NCBI GenBank assembly: GCA_965234725.1
Contig: CBDDUX010000027.1
Location: forward strand, 9,772 to 73,771
Source of the DNA: Thermoplasmatota archaeon
Lineage (GTDB): Archaea; Thermoplasmatota; Penumbrarchaeia; Penumbrarchaeales; Penumbrarchaeaceae
DNA length: 64,000 nucleotides
Direction of reading: 5' to 3'
Part shown: positions 2,985 to 29,000 of the stretch, piece after piece
Position numbering within the stretch: the stretch's first letter is position 1
Layout: each line of letters begins with the position of its first letter
The notes under the pieces: generated by a model
Databases searched by the model: none
Told to the model about the DNA's origin: nothing
What the model saw: the letters and a program-made list of their open reading frames with translations, nothing else
Made by a program: the position numbers and the translations under genes

Positions 2985-4227
2985 GTCTGATCGCTTCCGT
3001 GATTATTCTCTCCTGTCTATCGATCTTTCTGTTATCCATTAGAATATGACCATTCACAATTGAATAACATACAGCGCTGCTCTGGACTGAATAGACGACA
3101 TTGGATTCCGGGGAATGACAGGGTACCATCGTTGGATCTTTCATATCAATCAGTATCAGATCGGCCAATTTGCCTTCTGAAAGTGTTCCGCCATTGATAC
3201 CCAGAGCTTCGTATCCGACCCTCGTTGCAGCATTGATTATTTCATGGGCGGAAATGGATGATGCACCAAATCGTTGTTTGCATAAAAGACCCATCATCTT
3301 CATAGTGGAAAACATGTCCAAGGAATTGTTGGAAGCAGAACCATCCGTTCCAAGTGCAACCCTTATGCCCCGTCTCACTATATCGGGATATTTCAACTGG
3401 CCCCCAACTGAGAGCTTCATATTGGATATTGGAGCATGAGCGATACCCACCCCATTTTCCGCGGCAAGGTCCATATCCACCTCTGTGAGGTGGACACAAT
3501 GAGCTCCGATCAGCTTGTTTTCAAGGAGACCACATTTTTTAAGGATCCCCATTGGGGTCCCACCGAACCTTTCACTACATTCCTTGACCTCATTTTCTGT
3601 TTCAGAAATGTGGGTATGTACTATCAGCTCCCTCTTTTCAGCCTCTTCTTTGCACCATCTCAATCCTTCCTCAGAGACAGTATATACAGCATGAGGGGAC
3701 ATGGAGTTTTTTACTCTTCCACAATTCAAGTTATCGATCGCTTCCAAAGATCTTCTGACGCCCTTGATTCCTTGCTCTCTTCTTTCTTCATCAAAGAGGT
3801 CAATAAATCCTTCACCAAGTACCGCTCTCAATCCCATGTCGCGAACAATATCAGCCACCTCTCCCTGTCTGAAATACATATCATTGAAGAGTGTGGTACC
3901 GGTCCTGATCATTTCCAGACAGGCAAGGGAAAGGCCGCTCCGGAGGTGATCCAGGGTCATCCTTGATTCCATGGGCCAGATCCTATTCTGAAGCCACTCC
4001 TTCAATTCCAAATCCTCTCCGATACCTTTCAAGAGGGTCATGGGTGCATGAGTGTGAGAATTGCATAGACCAGGCATTATCAACAGGTCTGAAGCATCTA
4101 TTGTTCTATCTGAATCCTCTCCTGAAACCCTTCCCTCATGGATCTCCTCAATTGAACCATCATCAAGGATGAATGTCCTTCTTCTTCCGTCCAGACAGTG
4201 GGCTCCTTCGATGACCATCCTTCCCAT
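2950..4227 (-). CDS. mtaD: Amidohydrolase-family deaminase: 5-methylthioadenosine / S-adenosylhomocysteine / 5'-deoxyadenosine deaminase
   Basis: HTHAPMT metal-binding start, HTHISE and GTDGSASNN motifs of the chlorohydrolase/MtaD subfamily. Confidence 0.75.
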   Translation of the reverse strand: MGRMVIEGAHCLDGRRRTFILDDGSIEEIHEGRVSGEDSDRTIDASDLLIMPGLCNSHTHAPMTLLKGIGEDLELKEWLQNRIWPMESRMTLDHLRSGLSLACLEMIRTGTTLFNDMYFRQGEVADIVRDMGLRAVLGEGFIDLFDEERREQGIKGVRRSLEAIDNLNCGRVKNSMSPHAVYTVSEEGLRWCKEEAEKRELIVHTHISETENEVKECSERFGGTPMGILKKCGLLENKLIGAHCVHLTEVDMDLAAENGVGIAHAPISNMKLSVGGQLKYPDIVRRGIRVALGTDGSASNNSLDMFSTMKMMGLLCKQRFGASSISAHEIINAATRVGYEALGINGGTLSEGKLADLILIDMKDPTMVPCHSPESNVVYSVQSSAVCYSIVNGHILMDNRKIDRQERIITEAIRLASDLGGDHNE

Positions 4228-4280
4228 GGGAGGTGAAGGGTGGGATCTATTGAAAAAACCTTCCTAAGTATTCTTTTTCC

Positions 4281-4985
4281 TCATATTTTATCTGGAAGGT
4301 TGGACAAGATCTCCAAGACCGATCCCCATCTTGACCTGGCATTCCCGAGTATGTCTTTGAAATCCAAGGGGGTTCGTTCTATCCCATTTGCATAATTATC
4401 AATTGTTAGAAGTGCTCCAACTCTGATCCCAAGTTCGGAACAAAGGGTAGCCTCAGGTCCCAGGTTCATTCCCACGATATCTCCCCAACCAGAAAGGAGC
4501 TTTACCTCTGCTTCGGTCTCCAGTCTTGGACCTCTGGTCTGGACATAGATGCAATCCTGCAAGAGGTCGTAATTGGATGATCTGCAGGCTTCCACCAGGG
4601 AGGATTGGATATCCTGGTCCAGACCAGGAGTTGTATGGAAGATGTCGCTATCATGGAAGGTAGTACCAGAGGAAAGGTCAATGTAATCAGAGGGGATCGC
4701 AAATCCAGGGACCCTGATATTCGATCTCAATGCACCTGTAGAGCAAATGGAAATGACCGAATCTATTCCGTTATCGAAAAGAGCCTGAACGTTCGCTTTG
4801 TGATCGATCTTGTGAGGAGGTATGGATGGGGGGATCCCATGCCGGGCGATCATTTTGATCTTTTTGTCTCCAACCTCAAGATCGATAATTGGGCTTGAAG
4901 TCCTTCCCCAAATGGTTTCAATGGACCCTTCGGGACGCAACGATCCAATATCTATGACTGATCCAGCAAGTATCCCCATGGTCAT
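4281..4985 (-). CDS. mtnP: 5'-methylthioadenosine (methylthioinosine) phosphorylase / purine nucleoside phosphorylase family
   Basis: PNP/MTAP family sequence pattern (IGGSG-like start, C-terminal phosphate/ribose-binding residues); adjacent to the deaminase. Confidence 0.7.
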   Translation of the reverse strand: MTMGILAGSVIDIGSLRPEGSIETIWGRTSSPIIDLEVGDKKIKMIARHGIPPSIPPHKIDHKANVQALFDNGIDSVISICSTGALRSNIRVPGFAIPSDYIDLSSGTTFHDSDIFHTTPGLDQDIQSSLVEACRSSNYDLLQDCIYVQTRGPRLETEAEVKLLSGWGDIVGMNLGPEATLCSELGIRVGALLTIDNYANGIERTPLDFKDILGNARSRWGSVLEILSNLPDKI

Positions 4986-5022
4986 GAAGGTCCATTGGTG
5001 GTATCGGGAATAACGATTTCGG

Positions 5023-8000
5023 TCAGGTCTGAACCATTCCCAGATTCTCCTCTAGCGGATAGAACCTTGCTGATTTATCATCCCTTTTGTAGTCGACAAT
5101 ACCGGCCCTGATCAGGTTCTTGACATGATAGTTAACTACCTGCCTGGATACCCCGATCAGCCTTCCTATCTGGTCCATGGTCACTCCAGGGTGTTCCAGT
5201 ATGATATTGAAGATCTCTTCCTGTTTGGAAACATTCTTCTTCAATTTGCTGATATTGATATTGGCTGGATAGTATCTCTTGTATATTCCATCGAACATGG
5301 ATTTTACGAATCCGTTTTGCTCGAGCACCCTAAGGTGGTATGCAAGGGTTCCATTGTTGAGGTCAAGGTTTCTTTTAATTGAGGAATAATGGTCCCCGGG
5401 GTTCGCAATGATGTAACCCCTGATCAGACCTCTTATCTCATGGTTCAGAATGTCCTTCTTGCTTAATTTCGAATAGAATGATATCCCGGCTGTGACCATG
5501 GTCACAAAACCGACCTCGGACCAAAGGAGTATGAAAATGGCTCCTATCGCAAGGCCTCCCAATCCACCGATCAGTAGCCATGGTGGGTTTGCCTCTCCTG
5601 GTTCATTGGGGGTCAGATAATTATCTGGGATGGGGTCATCATCATCATCTTTTTGATCATCATCTGCCGGTTCATCTCCATCGTCGATCACCGGAGGTTT
5701 GTAAGGCCAGACCAATTTCGTGAACTCGACCTGAGAATACTCGGATCCGTCATGTGCTCTTATAAAGATATACTGTCCTGACAATGGAACTGATAGTTCA
5801 TCTACCAGTATGGACCAGGACTTGAATCCCCAGGCATCCCTCCAATCTCCATCCCCTATCCTGTACTCTATCTTTCCTCCTGAATCATCAGGGTCCCTTA
5901 CCCTTCCTGAGATCATCCATCCCTGGTCTTCCTGATATTCCACATCATCCATGATTATCTTGGGGATATCGTTCACAGGTTCGATCCTGACCCTCAATCT
6001 GTCCGTTAGAATGGAGTCACCTGATACTATCTCCAGCCAAACGGTCACTTCACCGGAAATATCCTCGGTTGGAAGGAGGAAGAGATATCTGTTGGCTCCA
6101 TAATATGATATATAAGTTATCAAACGTGCGTCACTCGGGATCACCGATATCTCCACATTCGATAGATCCGAATCCGGATCGATTATCCATCCCTCAATAG
6201 GTATACGTGTTGGGAATTCCTGGTCCTCAACAAGGTTCACAAGACCAGGATTGGCTCCAATCCATGGGTCTGCATCCATGTTGATGACCTCAATTTCTCC
6301 AATTGTCCGTGTCCCATCACCTTGACCTGTTTGAGGATCAAATGCGATCACTTCGATCCTGGCGAAACCTCCGGAACCCATGATGGATGGATACAGTATC
6401 AGCTCATCCTCATCGATCCAGATATCCAAATCATCCCTCAACTCTGGCGGATCCGTACTAATGATCCCGACCTCGAAGGTCATGGGATCCCCGTCCGGAT
6501 CCTTGAAAATACCGTTCTCACCCGTCAGTTCGACCCTTCTTTCCTCTCCTTCGGATATTGTTATGGATCCTATTCCTCTCAAAAGTTGGGGATTGTCCTG
6601 AACCGGTAAGATAACAAGGTTGATCGGTTTGGAAAGTACCCGTGAATTCAGGTCGGATACACCGATCCTGAATGAAAAATTCCCGTTCAGGTCCGGGTAT
6701 TGTGATGCATGAGAAACTAGCAGATGGTTATTATCGATGAACAGCAGACCTCCCGGGATCTGAGAGATGGGGATTATCTCCAGCGAGAGCTTATCAGTTC
6801 CCAGAAGATCATCATCAACATGATCCAATATGTCGATCAATGTCTGTCCGAGAGATCCCTCCATTATAGTTATCTTCTCTGGAAGGCTGTCAAGTATCAC
6901 GGGAGGTGAATCATAGGTTACTGTAACCGGTCCAATTTCCAGGGCTCCGGATGAACCAGCCCTGACCATGAATGGAACAAAAGATTGATCGAAGTCATTT
7001 TGAGCTTTTTCCATGGCTTTCATGAAGTATGGTGAATCTGATATGTCAATAGAGATCCTGTAATCAATGGAAAGGTCCTTGAACGTGATGAAGCCAGGGC
7101 TGGAAACCATATAGAGGTCCAGGGCCTTGAAGGTATTTCCATAGATGTCGCTTTTCAATGTTCCTTGAATGTCATTCGGGAGCAATGTTTTCAGGTCCAA
7201 GGAAAAATGAGATGAGTTAGGAGCAATGTCAATACTACCACTGGATGATCCCATCGAGATATCGTTTATCGAATTCCAATCTGTCCCTGATGAGATCAAT
7301 CCATCATTGGATGTGAAACTGAATACATTTCCTGAACCCGTAGCGTCAAACTCTCCCAACAATGCTGGTCCATCAATGTCTTCCAGGAGTTCTATCAAAT
7401 ATCCTCTGTTATTTCCGGGAAGGATCTGGTAGAATCCACCCTTTGAACTTGTATAGAGGAATCCCTCGGGTCCGGTATATGCTCCACCATCCCCGTAGAA
7501 TTCTCTTGGGATCGATCTGGGGGAGGAAAAGGTATTGTTCAATCCGACCCAGGATAATGCGGGAGAGGTTCCGTTCCAGGAAATGACCGCCAGGTCCTTA
7601 TAGGGTCCTGAAGGGAAATAGAATTCCTCCCTGCCATCACCATCAAGGTCTATTGAGGTACCCTGTCCACTGATCGGAGCAAAGGAATCCAGGTCCAAGA
7701 AACCAGTTGAAGGTGATCCATTATTATCAACGGTAGTTGTAAGGATGGTGATATTGGAATCCTCATTTTCGGGGAAGAGGATGATGTCCGGAACTCCTCC
7801 GTTCAGGATCTTGGTTGTTCCGATCCCGATGATTCCGGGTGTGGAATCCAGTACGACCTGTTCGATCAGGGAGCCGCTTTCTCCAAGAGAGAATTCGCTC
7901 AATCCTCCACCGTTTGGTTTGAGGACATAGACTATATCCCTCAAAGTCTCCTCATCCTTGAGAACCTGGAAACCATTTCCCATTCTGGAAAGGTTATTGG

Positions 8001-8865
8001 CAAGCTCGATCTCTTTCAGGTCTTCCCAACCACTACCAGTTAGGAGGGATACTTTATCACCTGAGCTGGTTCCCTCGAAGTACTGTAAGACAATGCCTCC
8101 GGCAACCTTGCTATCTCCATCAAGTATCCTAACTGAAGGGTCTCCGGATACACCATCAAGTACCCGGGTTCTTGAGTAGTTCCCCTTACCATCGAAATGG
8201 ATGACATATATGGCAGAGTCCGGGAGATAATGGTATGTTATCTCTTCAATACCATCTCCATCGATATCTCCTATATCCATGGAATCAGCTCTCACATCAT
8301 CCGGAAGTATGTCCCATATCCTTCTGGCACCCTCAGGTCGTAATGTCGGAGGAAGATAGATATCCATGCTTGCATCACTGACCTCAGAATTCTCGGGAAG
8401 CAGAATAGTGATCGTCCTGGTTGAACCGGACATCAGCTCTCTTTCCACGTCAGATCCTGTAATAAAGGCTATCTGGCGGCCGAAATCCCCCTGAGCACCC
8501 CCGCCAAATGACCACTCCTTCCTGCCATCCATCCCAATATCTATTGAAACAGAGGACGGACCTTCCATTCCATCCACCGTGGAGACCATCAAGGTTGCCC
8601 CTATGACGGGTCCACCATCCGGGATGGGAATGGAGAGACTGGGATCGATACCTCCTCCCGATCCAAATTCAACGATAACTTTCTCGTGTTCGACGTTCCC
8701 CTTTCTGATCGATCCGGTCTCCTCCGCAAGTGTTAGAGGTGAGACTGATAATGAGATCGCAATGAAGATCAGGATCGCTTTACTGAGGACCCCAACATCC
8801 CGAAAATTTGAATTTCGGTGCGCTTCCCTTTTTTCTAAGTGTACAAAGGGCAAGCTCCCATTCAT
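5023..8865 (-). CDS. Giant surface protein (1280 aa): signal anchor, extracellular region with DGDG/FG-GAP-like Ca-binding repeats, one TM helix, cytoplasmic tandem winged-HTH domains
   Basis: N-terminal hydrophobic signal; DIDGDGIEEI and DLDGDGREEF motifs; TM WLLIGGLGGLAIGAIFILLW; C-terminal two wHTH units ending YKRYYP / SARFYPLE, paralogous to ORF 12156-12683. Confidence 0.75.
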   Translation of the reverse strand: MNGSLPFVHLEKREAHRNSNFRDVGVLSKAILIFIAISLSVSPLTLAEETGSIRKGNVEHEKVIVEFGSGGGIDPSLSIPIPDGGPVIGATLMVSTVDGMEGPSSVSIDIGMDGRKEWSFGGGAQGDFGRQIAFITGSDVERELMSGSTRTITILLPENSEVSDASMDIYLPPTLRPEGARRIWDILPDDVRADSMDIGDIDGDGIEEITYHYLPDSAIYVIHFDGKGNYSRTRVLDGVSGDPSVRILDGDSKVAGGIVLQYFEGTSSGDKVSLLTGSGWEDLKEIELANNLSRMGNGFQVLKDEETLRDIVYVLKPNGGGLSEFSLGESGSLIEQVVLDSTPGIIGIGTTKILNGGVPDIILFPENEDSNITILTTTVDNNGSPSTGFLDLDSFAPISGQGTSIDLDGDGREEFYFPSGPYKDLAVISWNGTSPALSWVGLNNTFSSPRSIPREFYGDGGAYTGPEGFLYTSSKGGFYQILPGNNRGYLIELLEDIDGPALLGEFDATGSGNVFSFTSNDGLISSGTDWNSINDISMGSSSGSIDIAPNSSHFSLDLKTLLPNDIQGTLKSDIYGNTFKALDLYMVSSPGFITFKDLSIDYRISIDISDSPYFMKAMEKAQNDFDQSFVPFMVRAGSSGALEIGPVTVTYDSPPVILDSLPEKITIMEGSLGQTLIDILDHVDDDLLGTDKLSLEIIPISQIPGGLLFIDNNHLLVSHASQYPDLNGNFSFRIGVSDLNSRVLSKPINLVILPVQDNPQLLRGIGSITISEGEERRVELTGENGIFKDPDGDPMTFEVGIISTDPPELRDDLDIWIDEDELILYPSIMGSGGFARIEVIAFDPQTGQGDGTRTIGEIEVINMDADPWIGANPGLVNLVEDQEFPTRIPIEGWIIDPDSDLSNVEISVIPSDARLITYISYYGANRYLFLLPTEDISGEVTVWLEIVSGDSILTDRLRVRIEPVNDIPKIIMDDVEYQEDQGWMISGRVRDPDDSGGKIEYRIGDGDWRDAWGFKSWSILVDELSVPLSGQYIFIRAHDGSEYSQVEFTKLVWPYKPPVIDDGDEPADDDQKDDDDDPIPDNYLTPNEPGEANPPWLLIGGLGGLAIGAIFILLWSEVGFVTMVTAGISFYSKLSKKDILNHEIRGLIRGYIIANPGDHYSSIKRNLDLNNGTLAYHLRVLEQNGFVKSMFDGIYKRYYPANINISKLKKNVSKQEEIFNIILEHPGVTMDQIGRLIGVSRQVVNYHVKNLIRAGIVDYKRDDKSARFYPLEENLGMVQT

Positions 8866-9060
8866 GGAAACTTATACTTTTTCCAAGATATTAATTATTA
8901 TCTGTACATATTTTTCAGCCAGAAGAAGGTCAAAGTTCAGAAAATACCAATCGGGAAAGAAATTAATCCTATCGAAATCAAGTTACCCAGCTCTTCCCGT
9001 TATTGATTTTGATAAGAAAACCTATAAGTAGAAAACCCGGGACTGAACTGTCACAGGCTA

Positions 9061-9768
9061 ATGGTGGGATCGATGGAAGAAGATTTCCTTAGGATCGGGA
9101 CAGGCATAGATGGTCTTGACGAAATGATAGAGGGAGGGTTCCCCTTTCCTTCTACTATCTTGCTGGCGGGAAACAGCGGATGCGGTAAAACCACTTTCTG
9201 CCTCCAATTCCTTTTTGAGGGTGCAAAAAGGGGTGAGAGAGGTCTTTATTTTACAACCCTTTCCGAACCGACGAACTGGATGCTCAGGTTCACCTCCCGT
9301 TTCAATTTCGTAGACAGAGAGGCTATTGGAAAGGACATCGTCTATTTCGACCTGGGACCATATTTCAAATCAAAATCTCCTGGAGATGATAAATATGAGA
9401 CCCTCATGAGGGTCATCGAGGAGAAGATCGTCGAGCTAATGCCTCAGAGGATAGTCATAGATCCTATCATCGCTGTCGGAGGGATCCTCAAGGAGCATTA
9501 TAGAGAGTTCGTTTTCGACCTATCCCAATCTCTGAAGAACTGGCAGGCGGTCACACTACTGACCGGTGAGGCCACTTTCGATCAACCTTATCCCATGGAG
9601 CCCGCGTATACTTCTGATGCAATCATTGTCCTATACAATGTAGAACATGAGGATGGAAGGAGAAGATACCTGGAGATATTGAAAATGAGGGGGACGGACC
9701 ATCTCACAGGGAAGCATATGGTTGATATGTCCTCAGATGGACTATCTGTTCAGATGGGGTTCAAATAG
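9061..9768 (+). CDS. KaiC/RecA-superfamily ATPase (single KaiC-like domain)
   Basis: Walker A GNSGCGKT, Walker B-like RIVIDPI, KaiC-like GIDGLD...GGFP opening. Confidence 0.75.
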   Translation: MVGSMEEDFLRIGTGIDGLDEMIEGGFPFPSTILLAGNSGCGKTTFCLQFLFEGAKRGERGLYFTTLSEPTNWMLRFTSRFNFVDREAIGKDIVYFDLGPYFKSKSPGDDKYETLMRVIEEKIVELMPQRIVIDPIIAVGGILKEHYREFVFDLSQSLKNWQAVTLLTGEATFDQPYPMEPAYTSDAIIVLYNVEHEDGRRRYLEILKMRGTDHLTGKHMVDMSSDGLSVQMGFK

Positions 9769-9770
9769 GG

Positions 9771-10382
9771 GTGATCATGATGGAACAAGCAAGTTCAAGG
9801 ATCATGGAATACATCGATCTCCTTAACATGTCATCAGAGTACTTGCTATCATTCTCACCCTTTTTCATCAATCATGTATCAGTTGACCTCATGACAGAAG
9901 TTCTATTAAATCGAAAGAGATCGGTGCTCTACATCTGTGTTGGAAGACCTCACCTTTTCGTCCAGAAGATATTGATGAACAGGGGAGTATCCACCAGGTC
10001 CATCCATTTCATGGATATGGTCCTTTATGTATGCAGGGAAATGAACAGGCAGAATCCATCAAAGATCTTCTTGGACGGGGAGGGTCAACCCCTGGAGATA
10101 CCCACCATCTTCAAACTATTCAGGGTCGATCAGGAGGTTGAACAACTCTCCATTGATGATGTCGACCTGTTGATCCTGGATAACCTTTCGGAACTCAGGA
10201 CCTACAACAACGATGAACAGATCAAGACCTTCCTTAAGCTGCTCCACAATATTTCAAGTTCCAAGGGAAAGGGACTGATCCTACTCCATCTGAATAACAG
10301 GCCAGGTGATGGTATCCCGGAACTTGTCAGGTCCATGGGGATAGAGGTCCTGGATATCCCAAACGATGCTTTCAGATCGTGA
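9771..10382 (+). CDS. Degenerate KaiC/RecA-like protein lacking a canonical Walker A (putative inactive partner)
   Basis: Starts 2 nt after the upstream KaiC-like gene; RecA-fold-like layout with LLILDNLSEL Walker B-like segment but no GxxGxGKT. Confidence 0.5.
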   Translation: MIMMEQASSRIMEYIDLLNMSSEYLLSFSPFFINHVSVDLMTEVLLNRKRSVLYICVGRPHLFVQKILMNRGVSTRSIHFMDMVLYVCREMNRQNPSKIFLDGEGQPLEIPTIFKLFRVDQEVEQLSIDDVDLLILDNLSELRTYNNDEQIKTFLKLLHNISSSKGKGLILLHLNNRPGDGIPELVRSMGIEVLDIPNDAFRS

Positions 10383-10471
10383 TATGGACCGCCGCTGTTC
10401 TATCTTAGACATACAAACCTTAAATATTCACTCTCACTCTTCCATGGAAAGACAGTATCTGGAGGGGGAAT

Positions 10472-11824
10472 ATGTTAAAACGGAACTCCGGCCACAGATC
10501 CTTCAGTCTATCCATCATGATCCTGCTGATGGTCCTTGTCCTGTTGATCAATGTCCCGGACACCGGATCACAGGGAACTGTAGAGATAGCTCTTGGAGAT
10601 CTCAAAGGCGAGACCAAAATTGACCTGGATAAGGACGGGATCTACGAATCCCTTATTATTGGTATCGAACTGATAGTTTACAAGGGTGGCAAGTACGGAC
10701 TCCATGGATCCATTGGGCAGGGTATAAGTGCCAATGTCGGCCCCGTAGACCTAGGGGTCGGTCCGCATACATTGGAACTATCGTTTTCCGGGGGTCCATT
10801 ATCAGTATCATCTTTATCCGGGCACCTTCTGGTGGATGTCGAGGCTTATTCGACAGATCCGGGTTCTGATACTGTGAAAAGGTCCTACAATACAGATGGT
10901 GACTATTCACCTGAGATGTTCGAGAGCCCCGACGAGGTCTCTTCCACAACAGTATCGATCTCTGGGAAGGAGGTCCTGATGAAGGGAAAGAAGATGGAGG
11001 TCAGGGTTAACATGACCTCACCCATGATATCCTTCTCCTATCCCGAGAGCCTCAGGGATGATACCCTTTCTTCGATCACATATCTGGAGGTCATTGCTTT
11101 CAACGACGTTGATAGTGACGGGAAATGGGACCCGAACAAGGATGATCTCAGATATTCTACGGATCTGTCCGATGTCGATTGGGAGATAAGTACGGATTTC
11201 AGCAGAGGATTCGATATCAAACTTTATGGCCTGCTCCAGCTCAGACTTGCCGGAACACCAACGACAGCAGCTTTTGCAAAGATGACATTCTCACTATCAT
11301 CTGACCATCTTGAAATCGACCCTCCATCACAGAAGTTCGATATCGACCTGGATCTATACCAACCACTGGACGCTGACAGGATCGCTGTTAGGCAGGAACT
11401 GGTCGATGAGACAGGAAAACTGAGTATCATCGAGGGGACCAGCATCGATGAAGATGATCATTCATTGATAGTGATGAAGGGGGATGACAGGCCATACGGG
11501 ACCTATTCCTGGACGGATGACATCGAGGTTGGAGGAGTGGAACTTTCCAATTCCTCTGTTGCCTCCTCATGGTATGAGATCGATGGTGGAAAGGCATCTG
11601 TTTGGTTCTCCTACCCCCTCAAAGGCAACATACAATTGATACATCATGATCCGACACTAAGCATGGACCCGGACCTTCCTCCCATATCCAGTGAGGATGA
11701 TTTCCTGTCAGACAGACCGGTTTTGATGCTCGGGGGAATTGCCCTTGGGATCCTTGTAGTAGGTGGGACCATTTTTTGGAGAAGGATGGGACGTTCCAGG
11801 GATCCTGGAAGAGGGGGTGATTGA
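10472..11824 (+). CDS. Secreted, C-terminally membrane-anchored hypothetical protein
   Basis: N-terminal signal (IMILLMVLVLLINVP), acidic extracellular region, C-terminal TM LMLGGIALGILVVGGTIFW plus basic tail. Confidence 0.6.
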   Translation: MLKRNSGHRSFSLSIMILLMVLVLLINVPDTGSQGTVEIALGDLKGETKIDLDKDGIYESLIIGIELIVYKGGKYGLHGSIGQGISANVGPVDLGVGPHTLELSFSGGPLSVSSLSGHLLVDVEAYSTDPGSDTVKRSYNTDGDYSPEMFESPDEVSSTTVSISGKEVLMKGKKMEVRVNMTSPMISFSYPESLRDDTLSSITYLEVIAFNDVDSDGKWDPNKDDLRYSTDLSDVDWEISTDFSRGFDIKLYGLLQLRLAGTPTTAAFAKMTFSLSSDHLEIDPPSQKFDIDLDLYQPLDADRIAVRQELVDETGKLSIIEGTSIDEDDHSLIVMKGDDRPYGTYSWTDDIEVGGVELSNSSVASSWYEIDGGKASVWFSYPLKGNIQLIHHDPTLSMDPDLPPISSEDDFLSDRPVLMLGGIALGILVVGGTIFWRRMGRSRDPGRGGD

Positions 11825-11851
11825 ATAGATCCTCTCGATATTGCAGCGGCC

Positions 11852-12139
11852 ATGAAGGACCTTTTTGTGGGAATACTGATAGTTCTTTCCGTTGTACTAG
11901 CATTGGTGGGTTATTTTTCATGGTCAAGGACCAGAAGTCCCAGGTTGGCCATGGTCACGGCCGCATTTTGTGTTTTCCTTTTAAAAGGACTCTTCCTTGC
12001 ATTCGGTCTGTATCTCACAGACTGGGTCAGTGTTCCCAAGGATTTCGCGGCTGCTTTCGATCTGATGCTTGTTTCAGACGTCCTCGTTCTCCTGCTGCTC
12101 TATGCCGCATTGTTCAGGAGAAAGAGCAGGATGGCTTGA
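11852..12139 (+). CDS. Small 3-TM membrane protein
   Basis: 95 aa with three hydrophobic helices; placed between the secreted protein and the wHTH regulator in the same orientation. Confidence 0.45.
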   Translation: MKDLFVGILIVLSVVLALVGYFSWSRTRSPRLAMVTAAFCVFLLKGLFLAFGLYLTDWVSVPKDFAAAFDLMLVSDVLVLLLLYAALFRRKSRMA

Positions 12140-12155
12140 CCGGGGTGCTGTCCGG

Positions 12156-12683
12156 ATGAAGGAGGACCCACTGGAACTTGACACCCGCAAGAGAATATAC
12201 TCTCTCGTCGAGTCAACTCCAGGGATACACTTCCGTGAGATATCAAGAAGATTGGACATACCCATGGGAGTCGTGGAATACCACCTTCACTACCTTTTGA
12301 AGAAGGATATGATCATTGCCAAGATGGAAGGGAGGTACAAGCGTTATTACACCGAGGGGAAGGTCGGTTCCAGAGATAAGAAGGTCCTGGCTTTTCTCAG
12401 GAAAGAGGTTCCTAGAAATATAATCATGCATCTCATGCTTGAACCTGGAACAAGACATAAGGACCTCAAGGTCAAGCTTGGGATCTCGGGTTCCACATTG
12501 ACATTTCACCTCAAGAAGATGATCAAGAAGGAGGTGGTAAAGGAAGAAGAGGTCGAAGGTGGGAAAGGCTACTTCGTAGTAGACCCTGAGGCTGTATCAA
12601 GGACCTTGATAGTGTTCAAGAGGTCCTTCATGGACGACCTGGTGGATTCTTTCACAGAGACCTGGTTGGAGATGGATTTGTAA
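12156..12683 (+). CDS. Transcriptional regulator with tandem winged-HTH domains (soluble paralog of the C-terminus of the 1280-aa protein)
   Basis: Start at Met 12156 (MKEDPLELD) directly after the upstream stop; two wHTH units with GRYKRYYT and KGYFVV wing motifs. Confidence 0.7.
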   Translation: MKEDPLELDTRKRIYSLVESTPGIHFREISRRLDIPMGVVEYHLHYLLKKDMIIAKMEGRYKRYYTEGKVGSRDKKVLAFLRKEVPRNIIMHLMLEPGTRHKDLKVKLGISGSTLTFHLKKMIKKEVVKEEEVEGGKGYFVVDPEAVSRTLIVFKRSFMDDLVDSFTETWLEMDL

Positions 12684-12857
12684 GATCCACCCCAATATTC
12701 CCACCTTCAAAAATCAATAACTGAATAATCCTTATACGAAATGTTTATAAACTGACCGATAAAAATTAATTATTTCAAGTGAAATTTATATACTGTTATC
12801 AATAATATTGTCAATGTTTTCGTCGAAACGGAAGATGAGGACACAAATGAATGGGGG

Positions 12858-14402
12858 TTGGATACTATGAAAAAGAACGAAAGAGATAGAAAGCGTCTAG
12901 CTTGGAAGGTAATATTTGGTTGTTCTGCAATAGGGATATTGTTGCTATTATCATTAATTCCATTTGAGATAATTGCAGTTCCACCGGGAAATGTGGATTC
13001 CGGCAATTATGTGGCAGACAATCATGACACACATGTTGCATACTACAATTTCAATGATATTTATACTGATGAAGAAGAAGAATATGTTTGGGACGATTCT
13101 GGAAGAGATAAAAAAGGTTTCCTAAAAAATGGAGTTAGTGCAACACCGGAGAAAGATGATAATATCGACGGTATTGATGCTGCTTTATCCTTTGATGGAA
13201 TAGATCAATATGTTCATGTGGATAGCAGTGGAGATTTCAACATTAGCGGTCGGTATTTTGTGATTTCAGCTTTGATTAAAGCAGATACATGTAATAATCC
13301 TGAGTTGACTATATGTAGTAGGGGGGATTATGGTAATACCGGTTTCATTTTTGGTCTTGAGTCTGGACTACTAACATTTAACGCATGGAATGTTGGACAT
13401 TACTACATTAAGAATACCGGGGGAAATGATCTTCGAGATGATGAGTGGCATTATGTTGCAGTAGAGTTTTTTCAGGGTACGGCACGATTGTATATTGATC
13501 CGTCTGCAGGTAGTTATGGTGAAGTTACATCAGACAATTACAATTTATATCCCGGAAATAGCACAAATCCTTTTTATATTGGGAAAGGTCAAAGTAATAG
13601 TGGTTATTTTAAGGGAGATATAGATTTCGTTTATTTCTATGCTCTCGAGAGTCCTTCTTTCCCTCTTACCCCCTCTCGAGATAGGATGTGGGGCATGGAG
13701 AATGTTGGTTATTGGCCAATGGATGAAGGATTGATAGAGAGTGTTCCTGAAGATCGGAATTTTATAAATGATATGGTAAGATCTGATTTCCATAGTTATG
13801 GTATCGCAGGTGACAACACAGGATTTGCCGGTTCAACTGGTTTCGGAAATAGTGCCCCTGGAACCCATTGTTTGCAGTTTGGTGGTTTGGGTAGCGGTGT
13901 AATGGTTGATGATGAAAATGATTATCTTGATTTCGCCTGTGATCCAGAGGAGGATGATATCTATATTGAATTCTGGGTAATGATCGAAGATTCAGAAGGA
14001 GATATGATGTTAATAGAGAAGTGGGATTGGCTTGAAGAGGACTCTGCAAACGGGTATAGAATATACGTTGATTACGATGGATTAACAGAGACATATGATT
14101 TCAAGTTTGAACTTGCCTGTGATGCTATAACAACACTTACATTATCAGGTTGTGATCCGAATTACTGGTACCATCTTTGGGCTTGGTCTGATGGAGGAAC
14201 TGGAATTATGAATATGTATTATGATGCCCATTTACATCTTTCAGACTCCAGTTCTACTACGAGTACTGATGGAATCGGAGAAACTGATAATAATCTATTT
14301 TTCGCAACAGGTCACCCTCATGATTATGATGAGGATGAGGTTGACTGGGAGCTTGTTGGAAAAATGGATGATGTGGTCATCGGAAGATGTTATCCCGTTT
14401 GA
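12858..14402 (+). CDS. Membrane-anchored LamG/concanavalin A-like lectin domain protein (AT-rich gene)
   Basis: N-terminal TM; LamG-like pattern (FDGIDQYVHVD...FNISGRYFVISALIK...WHYVAVEFFQGTARLYID...FYIGKG...FKGDIDFVYFY); low GC relative to flanks. Confidence 0.6.
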   Translation: MDTMKKNERDRKRLAWKVIFGCSAIGILLLLSLIPFEIIAVPPGNVDSGNYVADNHDTHVAYYNFNDIYTDEEEEYVWDDSGRDKKGFLKNGVSATPEKDDNIDGIDAALSFDGIDQYVHVDSSGDFNISGRYFVISALIKADTCNNPELTICSRGDYGNTGFIFGLESGLLTFNAWNVGHYYIKNTGGNDLRDDEWHYVAVEFFQGTARLYIDPSAGSYGEVTSDNYNLYPGNSTNPFYIGKGQSNSGYFKGDIDFVYFYALESPSFPLTPSRDRMWGMENVGYWPMDEGLIESVPEDRNFINDMVRSDFHSYGIAGDNTGFAGSTGFGNSAPGTHCLQFGGLGSGVMVDDENDYLDFACDPEEDDIYIEFWVMIEDSEGDMMLIEKWDWLEEDSANGYRIYVDYDGLTETYDFKFELACDAITTLTLSGCDPNYWYHLWAWSDGGTGIMNMYYDAHLHLSDSSSTTSTDGIGETDNNLFFATGHPHDYDEDEVDWELVGKMDDVVIGRCYPV

Positions 14403-14584
14403 ACTTTGTCTCAGAAATAGAACAAAATGAATCCTCATTTTATAGAGGATTCAATTCTCTTTTTTCATATAATGTATGTTATATGTTAATAATATGCCAT
14501 ATTATCTCATGCAATGAATAATATTATATATGTAATCTCATCATTATCTAAGTCAATATATAGGATAGGAAAGGAGAAGTCCAC

Positions 14585-17500
14585 ATGAAAAAGGTCACTA
14601 TACCATTACTTGTTTTGCTCTGGATATTATCCTTTAATAACTGTATTAATGGAAATGAGAATAGTAATATAGATAACTTAAAGGAGATTAATCTGGATTT
14701 TATAATAAATGGAGATACGATAATCGTTGACCAAGGAGGTTCCGGTGATTATACACGGATCCAAGATGCGATAAATCATAGCAAAGATGGAGACACAATT
14801 CATGTCTTTTCCGGAAATTATACAGAGTTATTGAATATAAATAGATCTATTACATTAATAGGAATCGGAGATCCTCTTCTCTATCATGTTGAGGAGGGTA
14901 CAACTAATATAATAATCACATCAAATGATGTAAATATAAAAAATATATCGATAGAAAATAAGAATGATGGGGAAAGTCCAAGATCGAATAATATTGTTAT
15001 CGAAAGTTCAAATGTTCTTATTGAAAATATTAATATACTTGGGGATAATGGGATAAAGTCTTTTAATCAAAAAGATACGACTATAACAAAATGCAATTTC
15101 AATTGTAGTGCCTATTCGATTCTATTTTCTAATTCAGAAGATATTTCAATCACACATAATACATTTTCTAATTATTTAGTTCTTAAAAGTGTCATTTACT
15201 TTATTACTTATGATTCAGGAGGTATATCAAGAGATATTTTTATTTCGAACAATACATTTTCTGGGAATTATCAACATTCATCATATTATCTTATAAGTAG
15301 AAATACTTTTGAAGATATATATAATTTAACAATCGCAAATCATTTATTTTCTAATTGTAATAAACCTCTGAGTATTGGAGGTAATAATCTAAGTATCATA
15401 AATAATATTTTTTATCAATGTAATGAAGCACTCGTTATTGGATCTGAAATATGTAATAATATCTTTAGAGATAATGTTGATTGTCGCATATCAGGTAGGA
15501 GTGAAACAAGATTCCATGATAATCTGTTTGAAAACAATACTGGTCAAATCGAAATTTCAGGGACAAGTCCTCGTTTATTCAACAATACGTTCAAGAATAA
15601 CAAGGTAGGACTATATATCGAAGGTGAGGAGAGGGAATGTGTTGTTAATAATAATTTTTTCTACAGGAACACGGTGGGTGTATCCATGGTTGGTGCACCC
15701 AATGCCGTTGTTTGGGGGAACAGATTCATTGATAATGATGTCCAGGCTCAATCTTCAAGCATATCCCACAGATGGTATGGAAGTTATCCAACAGGGGGCA
15801 ATTACTGGTCGGATTATAATGGAGACAAGGATGTGAAGATGGGTCCTCAACAAATGGATTCGGGATCTGATGGTTTCGGAGATACACCATATGTATTGGG
15901 AAATGTCAGAGATATCTATCCGATTTTCATTGATACCATAACTCCAGAAGCAGTAGCAGGACCTGATATGTCGATCGATCTCGGAGAAGCGTTTCACTTT
16001 GATGCGACCGATTCCACGGACGATCAGATGGTAATAGATTTCAAGTGGTCCTTCGAATACGACGGAGAAGAAGTGGTGAGGGACCTTGCCGAGTTCGATT
16101 TCCAGTTTGATATCGCGGGAGTCTATGATTCTGAACTGACAGTATCTGATTTCGCCGGAAATGAGGATACTGATTCATTCACTCTGACAGTGGAGGATAG
16201 GTCTCCTCCGGTGGTTGTAACACAGGGGAACCTCACAGTTAACCAGGGAGAGCTTGCTTATTTCTCAGCCTTGGGTACAACCGACCTCTCTCCGATTTCC
16301 GAATACAAATGGACCTTCCAGCATGAAGGGAAAGAAGAAGTTTTGAAAGGACCGGATGTATCCTTCAGGTTCACTGAGGTTGGAGTACATGAGATACAGT
16401 TGAAGGTGACCGATTCGGAGGGGAATATTGGTTATTCCTATTTCTACGTCACTGTGATCGACACCGAGGATCCTGTTGCGGTTCCAGGACCTGACATCGA
16501 ATTGGAAAACGGTGAGGTTGCCGATTTCTACGGGTCAGGAAGCACAGACAACGATGTGATCGATGTATATTTCTGGACCTTCAAGTATGGAGGAAGGACC
16601 GAGACATTGACGGGAGAAACCACTTCGTTCCTCTTCAACATACCCGGATACTACACCGTTTCTTTGACTGTCACAGATGCGAATGAGAACTCTCATTCGT
16701 CAACTTTGCAGGTAACAGTTCTGGATACAATCGATCCTGAAGCTGTAATTACGGGCAGGACCAAGCTTATGGAAGGAGATTCCCTTTCTCTTGACGGTCT
16801 CTCCTCAACTGACAACGGAAGGATTGTGAAGTATGTCTGGAACTTCACTGATGGAGAAGACAAGATAATCGAAGGTCCTTATCTCAACCACACTTTCGAG
16901 AGGCAGGGTTACATAGATGTCACATTGACAGTATTTGACCAGTGGGATAATTCCAATTCCAAAGTTGTAACTGTTGAGGTCCCGGATACAGAGAGACCGA
17001 AGGCCTCTGCCGGAGATGATATGACCGTGAAGAAAGGCACTACCATCACTCTTGACGGATCCTCATCCACGGATAATGGAGGGATCTCATCTTTCAAATG
17101 GAAATTCGATTACAATGGAGAGGACCAGGTATTGGATGGAAAGATAGTCACCTTCACATTTGATAAAGCGGGTGAATACGAGATAGAATTGACAGTAACA
17201 GATCATTTCCTGAACAGAGGAACAGACAAGATCACGATCAAGGTCTTGGACAACGGAACATTAAGTGGAATCGTCCAGGATGGAGATGGGAAGCCGATAC
17301 AAGGAGCTAAGGTTACTGTAACCGATTCCGATGGGAATGAATACACGGTAATCACAGGGACAGATGGTTCCTTCTTGGTTTCAGTACCAGAAGGACAGGT
17401 TACCTGGAAGATAGAAAAGAGCGGTTACCGATCATTGGAAGGGGCCTCAAGTATCGAGATAATGGAGGATACCGAGCTTTCAAGCTCCGATACAATGATG

Positions 17501-17695
17501 AAGAGATCCGAAAGTGATGGAGGGTCTCCGATCATCCCTATAATCGTTGCATTACTTGCTGTTATTATTCTTGCGGGAGCTATAATTGGATTTATCGTAG
17601 TTAAAAAGGGGTCTGGGAAGGAAAAAACCGTTGATCCCGTTGAGGAACAATCCATGGTGGAACCGGAAAATGAATTCGATGTCAATGATATCTGA
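14585..17695 (+). CDS. Giant surface protein: signal peptide, right-handed parallel beta-helix repeats, about six PKD-like domains, carboxypeptidase-regulatory-like domain, C-terminal TM anchor
   Basis: NosD/pectin-lyase-like repeats (NNIFRDNVDCRISG...HDNLFENNTGQIEISG...NNTFKNNKVGLYIEG); repeated ~85-aa PKD units (AVAGPD...KWSF...TVTD); GTLSGIVQDGDGKPIQGAKVTVTD; TM IIPIIVALLAVIILAGAIIGFIVV. Confidence 0.7.
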   Translation: MKKVTIPLLVLLWILSFNNCINGNENSNIDNLKEINLDFIINGDTIIVDQGGSGDYTRIQDAINHSKDGDTIHVFSGNYTELLNINRSITLIGIGDPLLYHVEEGTTNIIITSNDVNIKNISIENKNDGESPRSNNIVIESSNVLIENINILGDNGIKSFNQKDTTITKCNFNCSAYSILFSNSEDISITHNTFSNYLVLKSVIYFITYDSGGISRDIFISNNTFSGNYQHSSYYLISRNTFEDIYNLTIANHLFSNCNKPLSIGGNNLSIINNIFYQCNEALVIGSEICNNIFRDNVDCRISGRSETRFHDNLFENNTGQIEISGTSPRLFNNTFKNNKVGLYIEGEERECVVNNNFFYRNTVGVSMVGAPNAVVWGNRFIDNDVQAQSSSISHRWYGSYPTGGNYWSDYNGDKDVKMGPQQMDSGSDGFGDTPYVLGNVRDIYPIFIDTITPEAVAGPDMSIDLGEAFHFDATDSTDDQMVIDFKWSFEYDGEEVVRDLAEFDFQFDIAGVYDSELTVSDFAGNEDTDSFTLTVEDRSPPVVVTQGNLTVNQGELAYFSALGTTDLSPISEYKWTFQHEGKEEVLKGPDVSFRFTEVGVHEIQLKVTDSEGNIGYSYFYVTVIDTEDPVAVPGPDIELENGEVADFYGSGSTDNDVIDVYFWTFKYGGRTETLTGETTSFLFNIPGYYTVSLTVTDANENSHSSTLQVTVLDTIDPEAVITGRTKLMEGDSLSLDGLSSTDNGRIVKYVWNFTDGEDKIIEGPYLNHTFERQGYIDVTLTVFDQWDNSNSKVVTVEVPDTERPKASAGDDMTVKKGTTITLDGSSSTDNGGISSFKWKFDYNGEDQVLDGKIVTFTFDKAGEYEIELTVTDHFLNRGTDKITIKVLDNGTLSGIVQDGDGKPIQGAKVTVTDSDGNEYTVITGTDGSFLVSVPEGQVTWKIEKSGYRSLEGASSIEIMEDTELSSSDTMMKRSESDGGSPIIPIIVALLAVIILAGAIIGFIVVKKGSGKEKTVDPVEEQSMVEPENEFDVNDI

Positions 17696-17703
17696 GTTCT
17701 GGA

Positions 17704-26082: not shown

Positions 26083-29000
26083 TTGGGAGGCTCCGAAATG
26101 CAAAAGAAAGTGGTATTTCTATTATCTTTATTATTGCTAATGGGAACTTATTCATTCTTTCCATTAGATTTTCAAATTAATGCAGGATCTGAAAGGAAAA
26201 CAAGGGGGTTTGTTGATTTCGAGATGGACCTGAACATCTCCGATGCTTCGTTGGCAACGTACATCGGCGAGGCTGCAGGTGATGGTTCAGGGTGGTCTGT
26301 CTCTGGAGCGGGAGATGTGAACGGGGACGGATACGATGACATCCTCATCGGAGCATATAATAATGATGAGGGTGGGTCAAATGCGGGCCAGATATATCTT
26401 GTCCTGGGCCGGTCAACTGGTTGGAGCATGGACATGAACCTATCCTCAGCGGATGCATCGTTCATCGGCGAGGCTGCAGATGATTGGGCAGGGAGATCGA
26501 TCTCAGGAGCGGGGGATGTGAACGGTGACGGATACGACGACATCCTCATCGGAGCATATAAGAACGATGAGGGGGGGTCAAATGCGGGCCAGACATATTT
26601 TGTCTTGGGCCGGTCAACTGGTTGGAGCATGGATATGGACCTGGCCTCATCGGATGCATCGTTCATCGGCGAGGCTGCAGGTGATTTTTCAGGGGGTTCG
26701 GTCTCAGGAGCGGGAGATGTGAACGATGACGGATACGATGATATCCTGATCGGAGCTTTTGGCAATGATGAGGGTGGGTCAAATGCGGGCCAGACATATC
26801 TTGTCCTGGGCCGATCAACCGGTTGGAGCATGGATATGGACCTGGCCTCATCGGACGCGTCGTTCATCAGCGAGGCTGCAGGTGATAGTTCAGGGGGTTC
26901 GGTCTCAGGAGCGGGAGATGTGAACGGGGACGGATACGACGACATCCTCGTAGGAGCTATTAATAACGATGAGGGTGGGTCAAATGCGGGCCAGACATAT
27001 CTTGTCCTGGGTCGGTCGACGGGGTGGAGCATGGATATGGACCTATCCTCAGCGGATGCGTCGTTCATCGGCGAGGCTGCAAGTGATAATTCAGGGCTAT
27101 CTGTCTCCGGCGCGGGAGATGTGAACGGGGACGGATACGATGATACCCTGATCGGAGCTTTTGGCAATGATGAGGGTGGGTCAAGTGCTGGCCAGACATA
27201 TCTTGTCCTGGGCCGGTCAACCGGTTGGAGCATGGATATGGACCTGGCCTCATCGGACGCGTCGTTCATCGGCGAGGCTGCAGGTGATGGTTCAGGGTGG
27301 TCTGTCTCTGGAGCTGGTGACGTGAACGGTGACGGATACGACGACATCCTCGTAGGAGCTAATAATAACGATGAGGGTGGGTCAAATGCGGGCCAGACAT
27401 ATCTTGTCCTGGGTCGGTCGACGGGGTGGAGCATGGATATGGACCTATCCTCAGCGGATGCATCGTTCATCGGCGAGGCTGCAGGTGATGGTTCAGGGGG
27501 TTCGGTCTCAGGAGCGGGAGATGTGAACGGGGACGGATACGACGACATCCTCGTAGGAGCTAATAATAACGATGAGGGCGGGTATGATGCGGGCCAGACA
27601 TACCTGATATCAGGCCTTGGTTATTCCGAACCATTAGAGGTCTATTCGGTCGATCTCTACTCCGACTCAGGATTCTCAACACCCGCGACAGTTGCTGATA
27701 TCGGGAGCACCATATACATCGAGGTTAAAGGTCTCGACAGCAATGCCTCCCATCAAGATACTGCCATTGTAAATATCACATTCAGGCCAGGGTCAGTTGG
27801 TTTGATAAGAGTTGCTTATATCGAAACGGGAAACAACACTGGAATATACAGGGGATTTTTCATCATTCCTCCAGGAACGATTTACCTCGATACCTTGAAC
27901 TTCTCATCAAGAAAGGATCCCACAAAGTTTGCACACCTTTTCATTGATAACCCATTCAGGCCCACATCAATAAGCTCATTGAAGACCTACTATGATTCAG
28001 CATGTACAATTGAAGCGGACAAAGCAGACCTTGAAGATACCTTCTACATTGAGGTTATCGGAACCGATGCAAATCCGGTTTCTCGGAACTTTGCTCTGGT
28101 GAACATCTCCTCCACATACAGCATGCCACTCCGGATCCCAATTTTGCTCAATGAGACAGGGATCAATACGGGAGCATACCGCGGAGAATTTCAGGTACCT
28201 GAAACATTCGTGTGGTTCGAAAATATTGAGGTCGTTTCCTGCAGGGACCCAAGTTTTTACAGGAATATCAATGTCGACAAACCCTTCAGCCCCACAAGAA
28301 TAGACTCCGTAAAAACATACTGGGATTCCACCCATAGTAAAGAGATCAACAAGATACAACGGGAGGAAACATTGCATATCGAGGTGATAGGACAGGATGA
28401 GAATCCTCTGACAAGGGACTATGCTTTTGTCAATCTTACTTTTGAGAAAACAATACAACCCCCAATTTTAATGCTGCTCAAAGAAACTGGTTTACACACA
28501 GGCAACTATCGGAATGAATTTTTTATTCCAAACTCAACCGAGATGTTCGATAATATCTCTGTGATCTCAGCAAAGGACCCAACAAAGAATGCGAAGGTTA
28601 TGGTATGTGAACTGGTGGAGATAGGACCAACAGAACCAATAAGAATTGCAAATGAGGACGAAGAATATTCTGTTCAATATTCGAATATAGGTTTGGCAGA
28701 TTTTTCAAGCTGGACATTTGAGATCATCGGAGATTGGTTATCATTCGATACAGGTACTCTAATATTATCTGGTACTCCAGAAAACGAAGATGTGGGAATC
28801 ACGTCTGTAGCATTGAACCTAAGTGACGATATCGGTCATTTCTCTTCGCAAAAGTTCTTGATATCTGTTGAGAATGCCAATCCGATCTTGACTGGGGAGA
28901 ATCTTCTTGAGATTAACCAGGGAAAATACTATGAAGTGGACTACGACTGTAATGATGATGGACAAGGCAATGTAACCTACCATCTTTCATCGAATGCTGA

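Follow-up and report, generated by a model that had tools for sequence, protein, structure and literature searches.

Membrane-tethered transcription factors are known in bacteria, with ToxR and CadC as examples, and rarely in archaea, where ArnR is one. ToxR and CadC are type II proteins in which an N-terminal cytoplasmic domain, a winged helix-turn-helix (wHTH) of the OmpR type, is followed by one transmembrane (TM) helix and a modest C-terminal periplasmic sensor. ArnR has its HTH domain at the N terminus, its TM helices at the C terminus, and no exported ectodomain. The RsgI proteins of Clostridium thermocellum are paralogous anti-sigma factors whose N-terminal cytoplasmic domain holds a sigma factor and which are thought to report contact with differing external polymers. 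Here, we analyze positions 5023 to 12683 of a 64,000-nucleotide (nt) stretch, called the window below, of contig CBDDUX010000027.1 from an archaeon of the Thermoplasmatota, which are abundant in sediments, oceans, and guts and have few cultured members. The locus consists of a minus-strand gene for a giant protein of 1,280 amino acids (aa), with a predicted exported ectodomain and a C-terminal tail of two putative wHTH domains, and of five plus-strand genes, the last of which encodes a soluble paralog of that tail.

In Sulfolobus acidocaldarius, the archaellum operon is activated by ArnR and ArnR1, one-component regulators bound to the membrane (PMC5007285, citing Lassak et al. 2013), and ArnR has a sensory domain near its membrane anchor as well as a HAMP domain (PMC5007285). 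The giant protein resembles ArnR and ArnR1 as a putative archaeal membrane-anchored regulator whose paralogs are alike in the DNA-binding domain and unlike in the sensory part. Unlike ArnR, the proteins described here combine a signal peptide, an ectodomain of up to about 1,400 aa, one TM helix, and a C-terminal tandem wHTH; with no HAMP match and with its HTH domains placed after an exported ectodomain, the giant protein is not of the ArnR type. Like ToxR and CadC, it is a single-pass protein predicted to join an extracytoplasmic domain to a cytoplasmic winged helix without a phosphorelay, and in this functional logic the analogy to them drawn in a preliminary description of the window, made from the sequence alone, holds. 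The analogy fails in topology, which is reversed, and in the type of DNA-binding domain: the giant protein is type I, with a predicted cleavable signal peptide, an adhesin-like ectodomain, and two C-terminal wHTH domains of the ArsR/MarR type, and has no match to the OmpR-type family Trans_reg_C, which sets it outside the ToxR/CadC class. With RsgI, it shares the many paralogs per genome, the conserved cytoplasmic module, the one TM helix, and the differing extracellular module, whereas the cytoplasmic module is here a putative DNA-binding domain itself and the proteins are archaeal.

By sequence, the giant protein belongs with the HVO_0163-type tandem wHTH proteins (PF24266), a family that its tail and the soluble paralog both match above the cut-off, while a small three-TM protein encoded in the same locus is a remote match to DUF7471 (PF24283). 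What goes beyond the HVO_0163 type is the fusion to exported ectodomains and the expansion in Thermoplasmatota, for neither of which a description was found in our literature search. The same search brought up one paper that mentions HVO_0163, once, but none on DUF7471 or DUF7343 and nothing on tethered wHTH proteins in Thermoplasmatota.

A family of tethered tandem wHTH proteins in Thermoplasmatota

Pfam domain calls were judged against gathering cut-offs and NCBIfam matches against equivalog or family cut-offs. The features of the giant protein are the following.

5023 to 8865, minus strand: giant type I membrane protein, 1,280 aa (open reading frame [ORF] map, Pfam, hydropathy, homolog searches)
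8725 to 8865, minus strand: predicted signal peptide or signal anchor, aa 1 to 47 (hydropathy and flanking charges)
5524 to 5580, minus strand: single predicted TM helix, aa 1096 to 1114 (hydropathy), with a poly-Asp acidic stretch on its N-terminal side and the basic SKLSKKD on its C-terminal side
5257 to 5439, minus strand: wHTH 1, aa 1143 to 1203, PF24266 HTH_HVO_0163_N (62.1 bits against a cut-off of 31), with the wing YKRYYP
5065 to 5223, minus strand: wHTH 2, aa 1215 to 1267, ArsR/MarR-like (HTH_24 and MarR_2 in Pfam)

The N terminus has a basic n-region, a hydrophobic core at aa 24 to 42, and then TLA/EE; the ectodomain of ~1,050 aa is strongly acidic, with a net charge of about -10.6 for every 100 residues, and the net charge of the tail is +8. 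Since an acidic stretch precedes the TM helix and SKLSKKD follows it, the positive-inside rule puts the C terminus in the cytoplasm, and the predicted topology is N-out, C-in. The layout of a membrane-tethered regulator with cytoplasmic wHTH domains, as proposed in the preliminary description, is thus borne out by the signal segment, the one TM helix, and the charges around it. In the giant tail as in the soluble protein, PF24266 above its cut-off is followed by a second wHTH, which in the former is matched by HTH_24 at aa 1215 to 1257 (47.3 bits against 21.9). Neither protein contains a cysteine, and the matches to the NCBIfam family HTH_metalloreg (23.2 and 35.6 bits) stay below the cut-off of 55; both are predicted to have an ArsR-like fold, yet they are not classical metal sensors of the ArsR/SmtB kind. 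The weakest part of the preliminary description concerned FG-GAP-like calcium-binding repeats in the ectodomain: two DxDGDG motifs (aa 200 and 406) are present, but the FG-GAP_3 match is below threshold (14.4 against 26.9 bits). Orthologs P0008 to P0011 have precomputed PF13517 or PF01839 matches, graded weak or faint at three orthologous loci (identifiers beginning with P or L are our own). Full-length homologs of the giant protein number 11, at 41 to 100% identity, and the named ones come from metagenome-assembled genomes (MAGs) of Thermoplasmatota.

The tail has far more relatives than the full-length protein. A phmmer search with aa 1120 to 1280 against 1.84 billion cluster representatives (50% identity) returned 6,270 matches at E ≤ 1e-3, 2,146 at E ≤ 1e-10, and 99 at E ≤ 1e-30. 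Among the best 150 representatives, to which our figures on family architecture refer, 136 carry the tandem wHTH at the extreme C terminus with a TM helix 140 to 245 aa from the end; these 136 range from 238 to 1,568 aa in length. An N-terminal hydrophobic segment is found in 79 of the 113 representatives that begin with Met. For the genome scan, one genome of each species was searched with the motif GYIxANPGxH; 107 loci were confirmed and 80 retained, and all 80 are from Thermoplasmatota (Thermoplasmata, Methanomassiliicoccales, and related MAGs). A large family of tethered tandem wHTH proteins therefore exists, confined to Thermoplasmatota in the genome scan, with up to four tethered paralogs per genome in the sample and sometimes two such genes within 10 kb.

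Across this family, the tail is almost invariant and the ectodomains are freely swapped among paralogs. The tail follows the strongly conserved consensus RGxIxGYIxANPGxHY..NGTLAYHL..LE.EG.IKS..DG.YKRFYP, in which the recognition helix of wHTH 1 (NGTLAYHL) is >90% conserved, and the recognition helix of wHTH 2 varies more among paralogs. When five loci were compared directly with the window giant, alignment was limited to the tail. In the 46 of the best 150 members that were scanned for ectodomain families, we found PKD, CARDB, DUF11, NEW3, NosD/beta-helix, Big, and FG-GAP domains, and among the 25 most frequent of the 72 families matched there were no Cache, PAS, or PBP domains. Net charge is distributed as in the giant protein, with +5 and +3 for the two wHTH regions and about -7 per 100 aa for the ectodomains. 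The preliminary description had considered that the tandem wHTH segment might be a generic domain of unrelated contexts, and this turned out to be so in part: the segment is tethered in 136 of the 150 representatives, but the ectodomains are diverse and the genomic contexts unrelated.

All-versus-all clustering of ORFs within 6 kb around 59 distant members showed no recurrent neighbor gene family beyond the synteny of orthologous groups, so that the tethered proteins look self-contained. A universal neighbor of tethered genes was accordingly rejected, the Lhr-like helicase in L073 to L086 being an example of such orthologous-group synteny. In these loci (e.g., L086:7683-13160), tethered orthologs of ~770 aa from Methanomassiliicoccales adjoin a helicase of ~1,800 aa and an ORF of ~420 aa; the Lhr-like assignment of the helicase comes from its sequence and not from a family scan, and the synteny is that of one clade.

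We regard the family-level result as the most interesting outcome. At least about 136 clusters (50% identity) combine a reversed topology, tandem wHTH tails, and swapped adhesin-like ectodomains, and the tethered family would represent a substantial unstudied part of Thermoplasmatota signaling or surface biology; if the broad version of the regulatory reading given below is true, it could be a main envelope-to-genome signaling route in these uncultured archaea. The short, highly conserved tail, which should be expressible in soluble form, and a conserved promoter element offer an experimental handle.

Readings of the tail and of the locus

The ORF map recovered all six genes of the preliminary description, the giant gene on the minus strand and five on the plus strand, and confirmed their coordinates and tight spacing, with 2 to 8, 89, 27, and 16 nt between successive plus-strand genes. 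The products of the latter are the following.

9061 to 9768, plus strand: single-domain KaiC-like ATPase, 235 aa (PF06745, E 5e-40, 137.7 bits against 26.6)
9771 to 10382, plus strand: putative degenerate partner with a KaiC/FlaH fold, or iKaiC (AlphaFold and Foldseek)
10472 to 11824, plus strand: type I membrane protein of 450 aa, here called mid, with a signal peptide, an acidic ectodomain, a C-terminal TM helix, and a short basic tail
11852 to 12139, plus strand: protein of 95 aa with three TM segments, remotely DUF7471-like (hydropathy and profile search)
12156 to 12683, plus strand: soluble tandem wHTH regulator of 175 aa (PF24266, 78.0 bits against 31; HTH_24, 43.9 against 21.9)

With moderate confidence, we read the locus as a juxtaposition, specific to one lineage, of three elements: an autonomous tethered one-component regulator, a membrane-controlled soluble paralog, and a lineage-specific pair of a KaiC-like ATPase and a putative inactive KaiC. 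A Sec-type signal peptide would export the large acidic adhesin-like ectodomain and one TM helix would anchor the giant protein, whose basic tandem ArsR/MarR-like tail would stay in the cytoplasm near the membrane. By binding a polymer or surface outside the cell, the ectodomain could then change the oligomeric state of the protein, and the altered state could affect how the tail binds DNA at the membrane, with wHTH 1 serving a common function and wHTH 2 providing specificity. The KaiC-like ATPase and its presumably catalytically dead partner, encoded divergently from the giant gene, may act as optional cytoplasmic modulators of the tail, and the three-TM DUF7471-like protein may hold or release the soluble regulator as a membrane-controlled transcription switch, the pair being preceded in the window clade by the type I mid protein. 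DNA binding by the tail, the sensing of contact or polymers, modulation by KaiC, and control of the regulator by the three-TM protein are steps that we infer. A broader version, which is possible but which we put forward only tentatively, would extend this to a Thermoplasmatota-wide class of type I, signal peptide-dependent regulators in which swappable adhesin-type ectodomains (PKD, CARDB, beta-helix, and FG-GAP) signal contact with surfaces, polymers, or other cells to a nearly invariant tandem wHTH tail, KaiC pairs are optional modulators, and the soluble paralog with its three-TM protein is the same switch in a split and ancestral form.

Structure prediction is consistent with a DNA-binding tail. 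In the AlphaFold model, built from 17 sequences, a flexible linker connects two wHTH units, both well formed (pLDDT 86.6); taken singly, these domains can be superposed on ArsR, MarR, and SlyA at 1.4 Å. The sequence of wHTH 1 is similar to that of PDB entry 5duk (E 5e-10), a "putative DNA binding protein" of 77 aa, and the structural matches of the whole tail, at low TM-scores, include the DNA-binding tandem winged-helix proteins PF0095, RPC34, and TFIIIC.

Several points weigh against the regulatory reading, and most of them lend themselves to its main rival, in which the tail is no transcription factor but a cytoplasmic docking domain of surface or adhesin proteins that serves their sorting, anchoring, turnover, or signaling. 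Whole-tail matches also include ESCRT-II and ScpB, whose tandem winged helices bind proteins, and by analogy the common partner of the tails could be the soluble paralog or the KaiC-like ATPase; the orientation of the two domains in our model is uncertain (pTM 0.51). The recognition helix of wHTH 1 is near-invariant even across unrelated paralogs, which is unusual for regulators with differing regulons and which a shared protein partner would explain equally well. The tail lies near the membrane, and its linker from the TM helix to wHTH 1 is short (~20 aa) and partly hydrophobic, which may restrict access to DNA. The ectodomains are of the adhesin or S-layer type rather than classical ligand sensors, and many other giant surface proteins are encoded in the window and in related genomes. 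Both the binding of DNA by the tail and the nature of the sensed signal are inferred from sequence; the tethered layout was inspected in the best 150 members of the family only; and the link to KaiC, which touches five of 59 distant loci in perhaps three independent events, is suggestive and not established.

We nevertheless consider the docking function unlikely. Both domains exceed the Pfam cut-offs as DNA-binding wHTH domains of the ArsR/MarR/HTH_24 type, the basic charge of the tail is kept across the family together with a conserved K-R wing, and the paralog that stands alone resembles an ordinary archaeal regulator in both size and layout. Moreover, none of the other giant surface proteins encoded in the window carries a wHTH tail, so that the tail appears to be unneeded for surface display.

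The preliminary description went further than our regulatory reading and took the locus for a self-contained module of envelope sensing and transcription control; on this view, the six genes would co-evolve, and all their products would work with the giant protein. The tight divergent order does recur in about ten species-level relatives (L001/L016, L004, L009, L010, L013 to L015, and L019), and the tail and the soluble protein are indeed paralogous, with 30% identity (E 1e-15), PF24266 in both, and the wings YKRYYP and YKRYYT present as described. The complete arrangement is confined, however, to relatives with a tail identity of about 81% or more, in one narrow clade of Thermoplasmatota, and the same relatives are also syntenic for housekeeping genes, with PNP/MTAP, PRTase, metallo-beta-lactamase, PCMT, and adenylosuccinate synthase on one flank and NAD synthase, TBP, and an HD protein on the other. 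Since these flanks are kept too, gene order reflects recent common ancestry and is weak evidence of function.

Scanning the orthologous and retained loci with one hidden Markov model (HMM) per locus gene showed that three blocks of the locus are separable. The KaiC pair is missing in L012 and in L002/L029; L023 retains the KaiC pair but not the three downstream genes; and both are absent from L020 and L028. In L091, with a regulator of 61% identity, the syntenic NAD synthase/TBP/HD site holds the regulator gene together with those of mid and the small protein, and neither a giant gene nor a KaiC gene is found there. Conversely, the downstream genes were never found near distant tethered paralogs. 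The preliminary description suggested asking whether KaiC-like pairs co-occur with the tandem wHTH unit: around 59 distant tethered genes there are five KaiC-like genes, and a KaiC-like gene occurs in 1 of 78 metagenomic loci of the soluble regulator. The lack of a conserved neighborhood, which that description had named as a ground for refuting it, thus applies in part. Gene order in the window overstates functional linkage, and a single six-gene module is improbable and already largely refuted by this separability.

Regulated intramembrane proteolysis, in which the giant protein would be an inactive precursor and engagement of the ectodomain would lead to cleavage in or near the TM helix and free a tandem wHTH fragment that acts as a soluble regulator, by a Notch- or RsgI/RseA-like logic, would suit the type I layout with its large modular ectodomain and compact C-terminal effector, the glycine-rich TM helix (LLIGGLGGLAIGAIF) that could allow unwinding, and the existence of a free paralog of like size, but it is the least probable explanation, as no protease gene lies in the locus or recurrently beside family members and the short database matches (162 and 130 aa) are most simply truncated gene calls.

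The KaiC-like pair and the three-TM protein with its regulator

KaiC-like ATPases and inactivated KaiC proteins (iKaiC) have been described as archaeal signaling hubs, as far as the work of Makarova, Galperin & Koonin (2017) is cited in PMC5847659. The window agrees with this theme in having a single-domain KaiC-like ATPase beside a protein predicted to have a degenerate KaiC fold, near wHTH and membrane proteins; it departs from it in that the partner is invisible to sequence profiles and limited to one clade, and in that the link to tethered proteins is lineage specific. The first of the pair is a KaiC-like ATPase as originally described, with its PF06745 match and an intact Walker A motif (GNSGCGKT); since it falls below the NCBIfam equivalog cut-offs for clock KaiC and ArlH, it is KaiC-like rather than KaiC or ArlH proper.

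For the partner, which probably starts at the ATG at 9777 and would then have 201 aa, the notion of a KaiC-like protein without Walker A is supported at the level of the predicted fold and not of sequence. Pfam gave no match, hhalign against KaiC alignments gave a probability of 0.3%, and the only sequence signal was a weak NCBIfam match to FlaH (E 0.006 over 46 residues), so that assignment to KaiC by sequence profile was rejected and the fold is seen in the structure model only. This model (26-sequence alignment, pLDDT 84.5, pTM 0.85) matched FlaH/ArlH 4yds (E 1e-4), KaiC (TM-score 0.55 to 0.59), PH0284, and RadA in Foldseek, with moderate TM-scores of 0.53 to 0.59 for FlaH 4yds, KaiC, and PH0284. 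The P-loop position reads VGRPH, and a Walker B-like LILDNLSEL is conserved as LILDNxSEL among its homologs, of which there are only 30, all in one narrow clade. The model thus suggests a KaiC/FlaH/RecA-like fold lacking Walker A.

The five KaiC-like genes found in the 898 kb around the 59 distant tethered genes all lie ≤2.5 kb from the tethered gene. In L044, L047, and L055, the KaiC-like gene is directly downstream of and codirectional with the tethered gene (0 to 60 nt), and the three ATPases are 92 to 96% identical to one another, while their tethered partners are 44 to 69% identical. The latter (L044:4838-9374, L047:2-4419, and L055:200-4933) are paralogs of 1,190 to 1,307 aa with ectodomains unlike that of the window giant. 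In the window clade, most relatives have a second module ~4 kb downstream of the giant gene, past the left edge of the window (L001:17980-23810, L002:17975-23801, and L004:19471-23858). It consists of a KaiC-like ATPase (227 to 230 aa), a protein of 250 to 310 aa that showed no hhalign similarity to KaiC or to the window partner, and a secreted protein of ~1,750 aa without a wHTH tail.

The last two genes of the locus form the unit that is conserved over long distances, namely, a three-TM DUF7471-like protein and an HVO_0163-like regulator. The soluble regulator is kept at 75 to 87% identity where the giant protein is at 41 to 61%. When distant loci with regulators of 32 to 61% identity were looked up, the three-TM gene was directly upstream in seven of seven; in L090, it overlaps the regulator gene, and the small protein has a weak precomputed match to DUF7471. 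Among the 78 loci of the metagenome scan for the soluble regulator, 67 have enough upstream sequence to judge the neighbor, and in 58 of these the three-TM gene is directly upstream and codirectional. The 95-aa protein of the window itself scores 13.5 bits against a DUF7471 cut-off of 27, and five of eight members of the small-protein family match DUF7471 over nearly the full profile length (best E 1.4e-3). PF24266 and DUF7471, whose function is undescribed, thereby gain a robust genomic partnership.

In Bacillus subtilis, the ArsR-family repressor SdpR is sequestered by the membrane protein SdpI. As a working analogy, the pair in the window resembles SdpR-SdpI in that an ArsR-like regulator and a small, polytopic membrane protein are encoded together, and the regulator has a weak NCBIfam match to SdpR (E 5e-4), which at 19.9 bits is far under the cut-off of 100. 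It differs in having two wHTH domains and a C-terminal extension, and the three-TM protein is unrelated to SdpI. The extension is helical, carries the conserved SFxDDLVDSFxExW, and is lacking in the tethered tails; it is a candidate interface for the three-TM partner or for dimerization. It follows wHTH 2 (aa 140 to 175) and reads DPExVARxLIxYKxSFxDDLVDSFxETW, with L151, D160, F166, and W170 invariant. We also considered whether the TM helix and juxtamembrane segment of the tethered proteins derive from the C terminus of the three-TM protein; this was rejected, as hhalign gave a probability of 1.6% and aligned the wrong region.

The mid protein has no match in Pfam, NCBIfam, or PDB sequences. 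Its homologs precede the pair of small protein and regulator in three clades only, and in 7 of 37 metagenomic loci by HMM. Distant copies of the pair often adjoin genes for large PKD, CARDB, or FG-GAP surface proteins without a wHTH tail (L005:4346-7117, L008:1408-5625 and 8862-12317, and L089:2821-5793), a hint that the soluble regulator may control surface-protein genes.

Promoter region and surroundings of the locus

Upstream of the giant gene lies the following conserved sequence.

8898 to 8907, minus strand: conserved promoter-proximal element GTACAGATAA, single copy, followed by an A/T-rich TATA-like stretch

The element is about 33 to 42 nt upstream of the ATG of the giant gene in the window and at -47 to -38 in L001. 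Exact copies are in the equivalent place in L001 to L004, L009, L010, L013 to L017, L019, L023, and L029, including loci where the KaiC pair is missing, and the intergenic region aligns across orthologous loci though coding identity drops to 41%. No second copy was found elsewhere in the locus, and with one mismatch allowed, its frequency in the window is no higher than expected by chance. The element is a candidate B recognition element (BRE) or operator. Inspection of the divergent intergenic region for operator-like repeats gave only repeats of 8 to 17 nt, in A/T-rich DNA and without comparison to chance.

An Rfam search of 4500 to 13500 found no RNA elements. PADLOC defense models matched only the wHTH portions of Csa3, CasR, and CARF models, apart from a weak mad8 match (KaiC), and a defense-system reading of the locus was dropped since these matches are to the generic wHTH. 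In L009, the closest relative (a 430-kb contig of MAG MFD03804.bin.2.29), splitting or truncation affects three genes (3652 to 10450): the giant gene encodes 971 aa, and both mid and the putative KaiC-fold partner are represented by two ORFs, which may reflect sequencing indels or real decay.

Beyond the regulator gene, the block from 12700 to 17700 has a low G+C content (33 to 41%, against about 47% elsewhere) and encodes a LamG-domain protein of 514 aa (12858 to 14402) and a NosD/beta-helix and PKD protein of 1,036 aa (14585 to 17695). It is missing from L001, L004, L010, L012, L013, and L019, where the regulator adjoins homologs of the window from 17.7 kb onward, and L009 is the only relative with a part of it; the block has the look of surface-protein genes that were recently inserted. 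Further exported proteins of very large size are encoded at 26083 to 30585, 32213 to 35965, 41707 to 44409, 53314 to 57207, and 59363 to 61450. Their contents comprise an FG-GAP/He_PIG protein (1,500 aa), a beta-helix/NosD protein (1,250 aa), a peptidase M14 (900 aa), a peptidase C25 with Ig-like domains (1,297 aa), and an MscS-type channel fused to CarboxypepD_reg domains.

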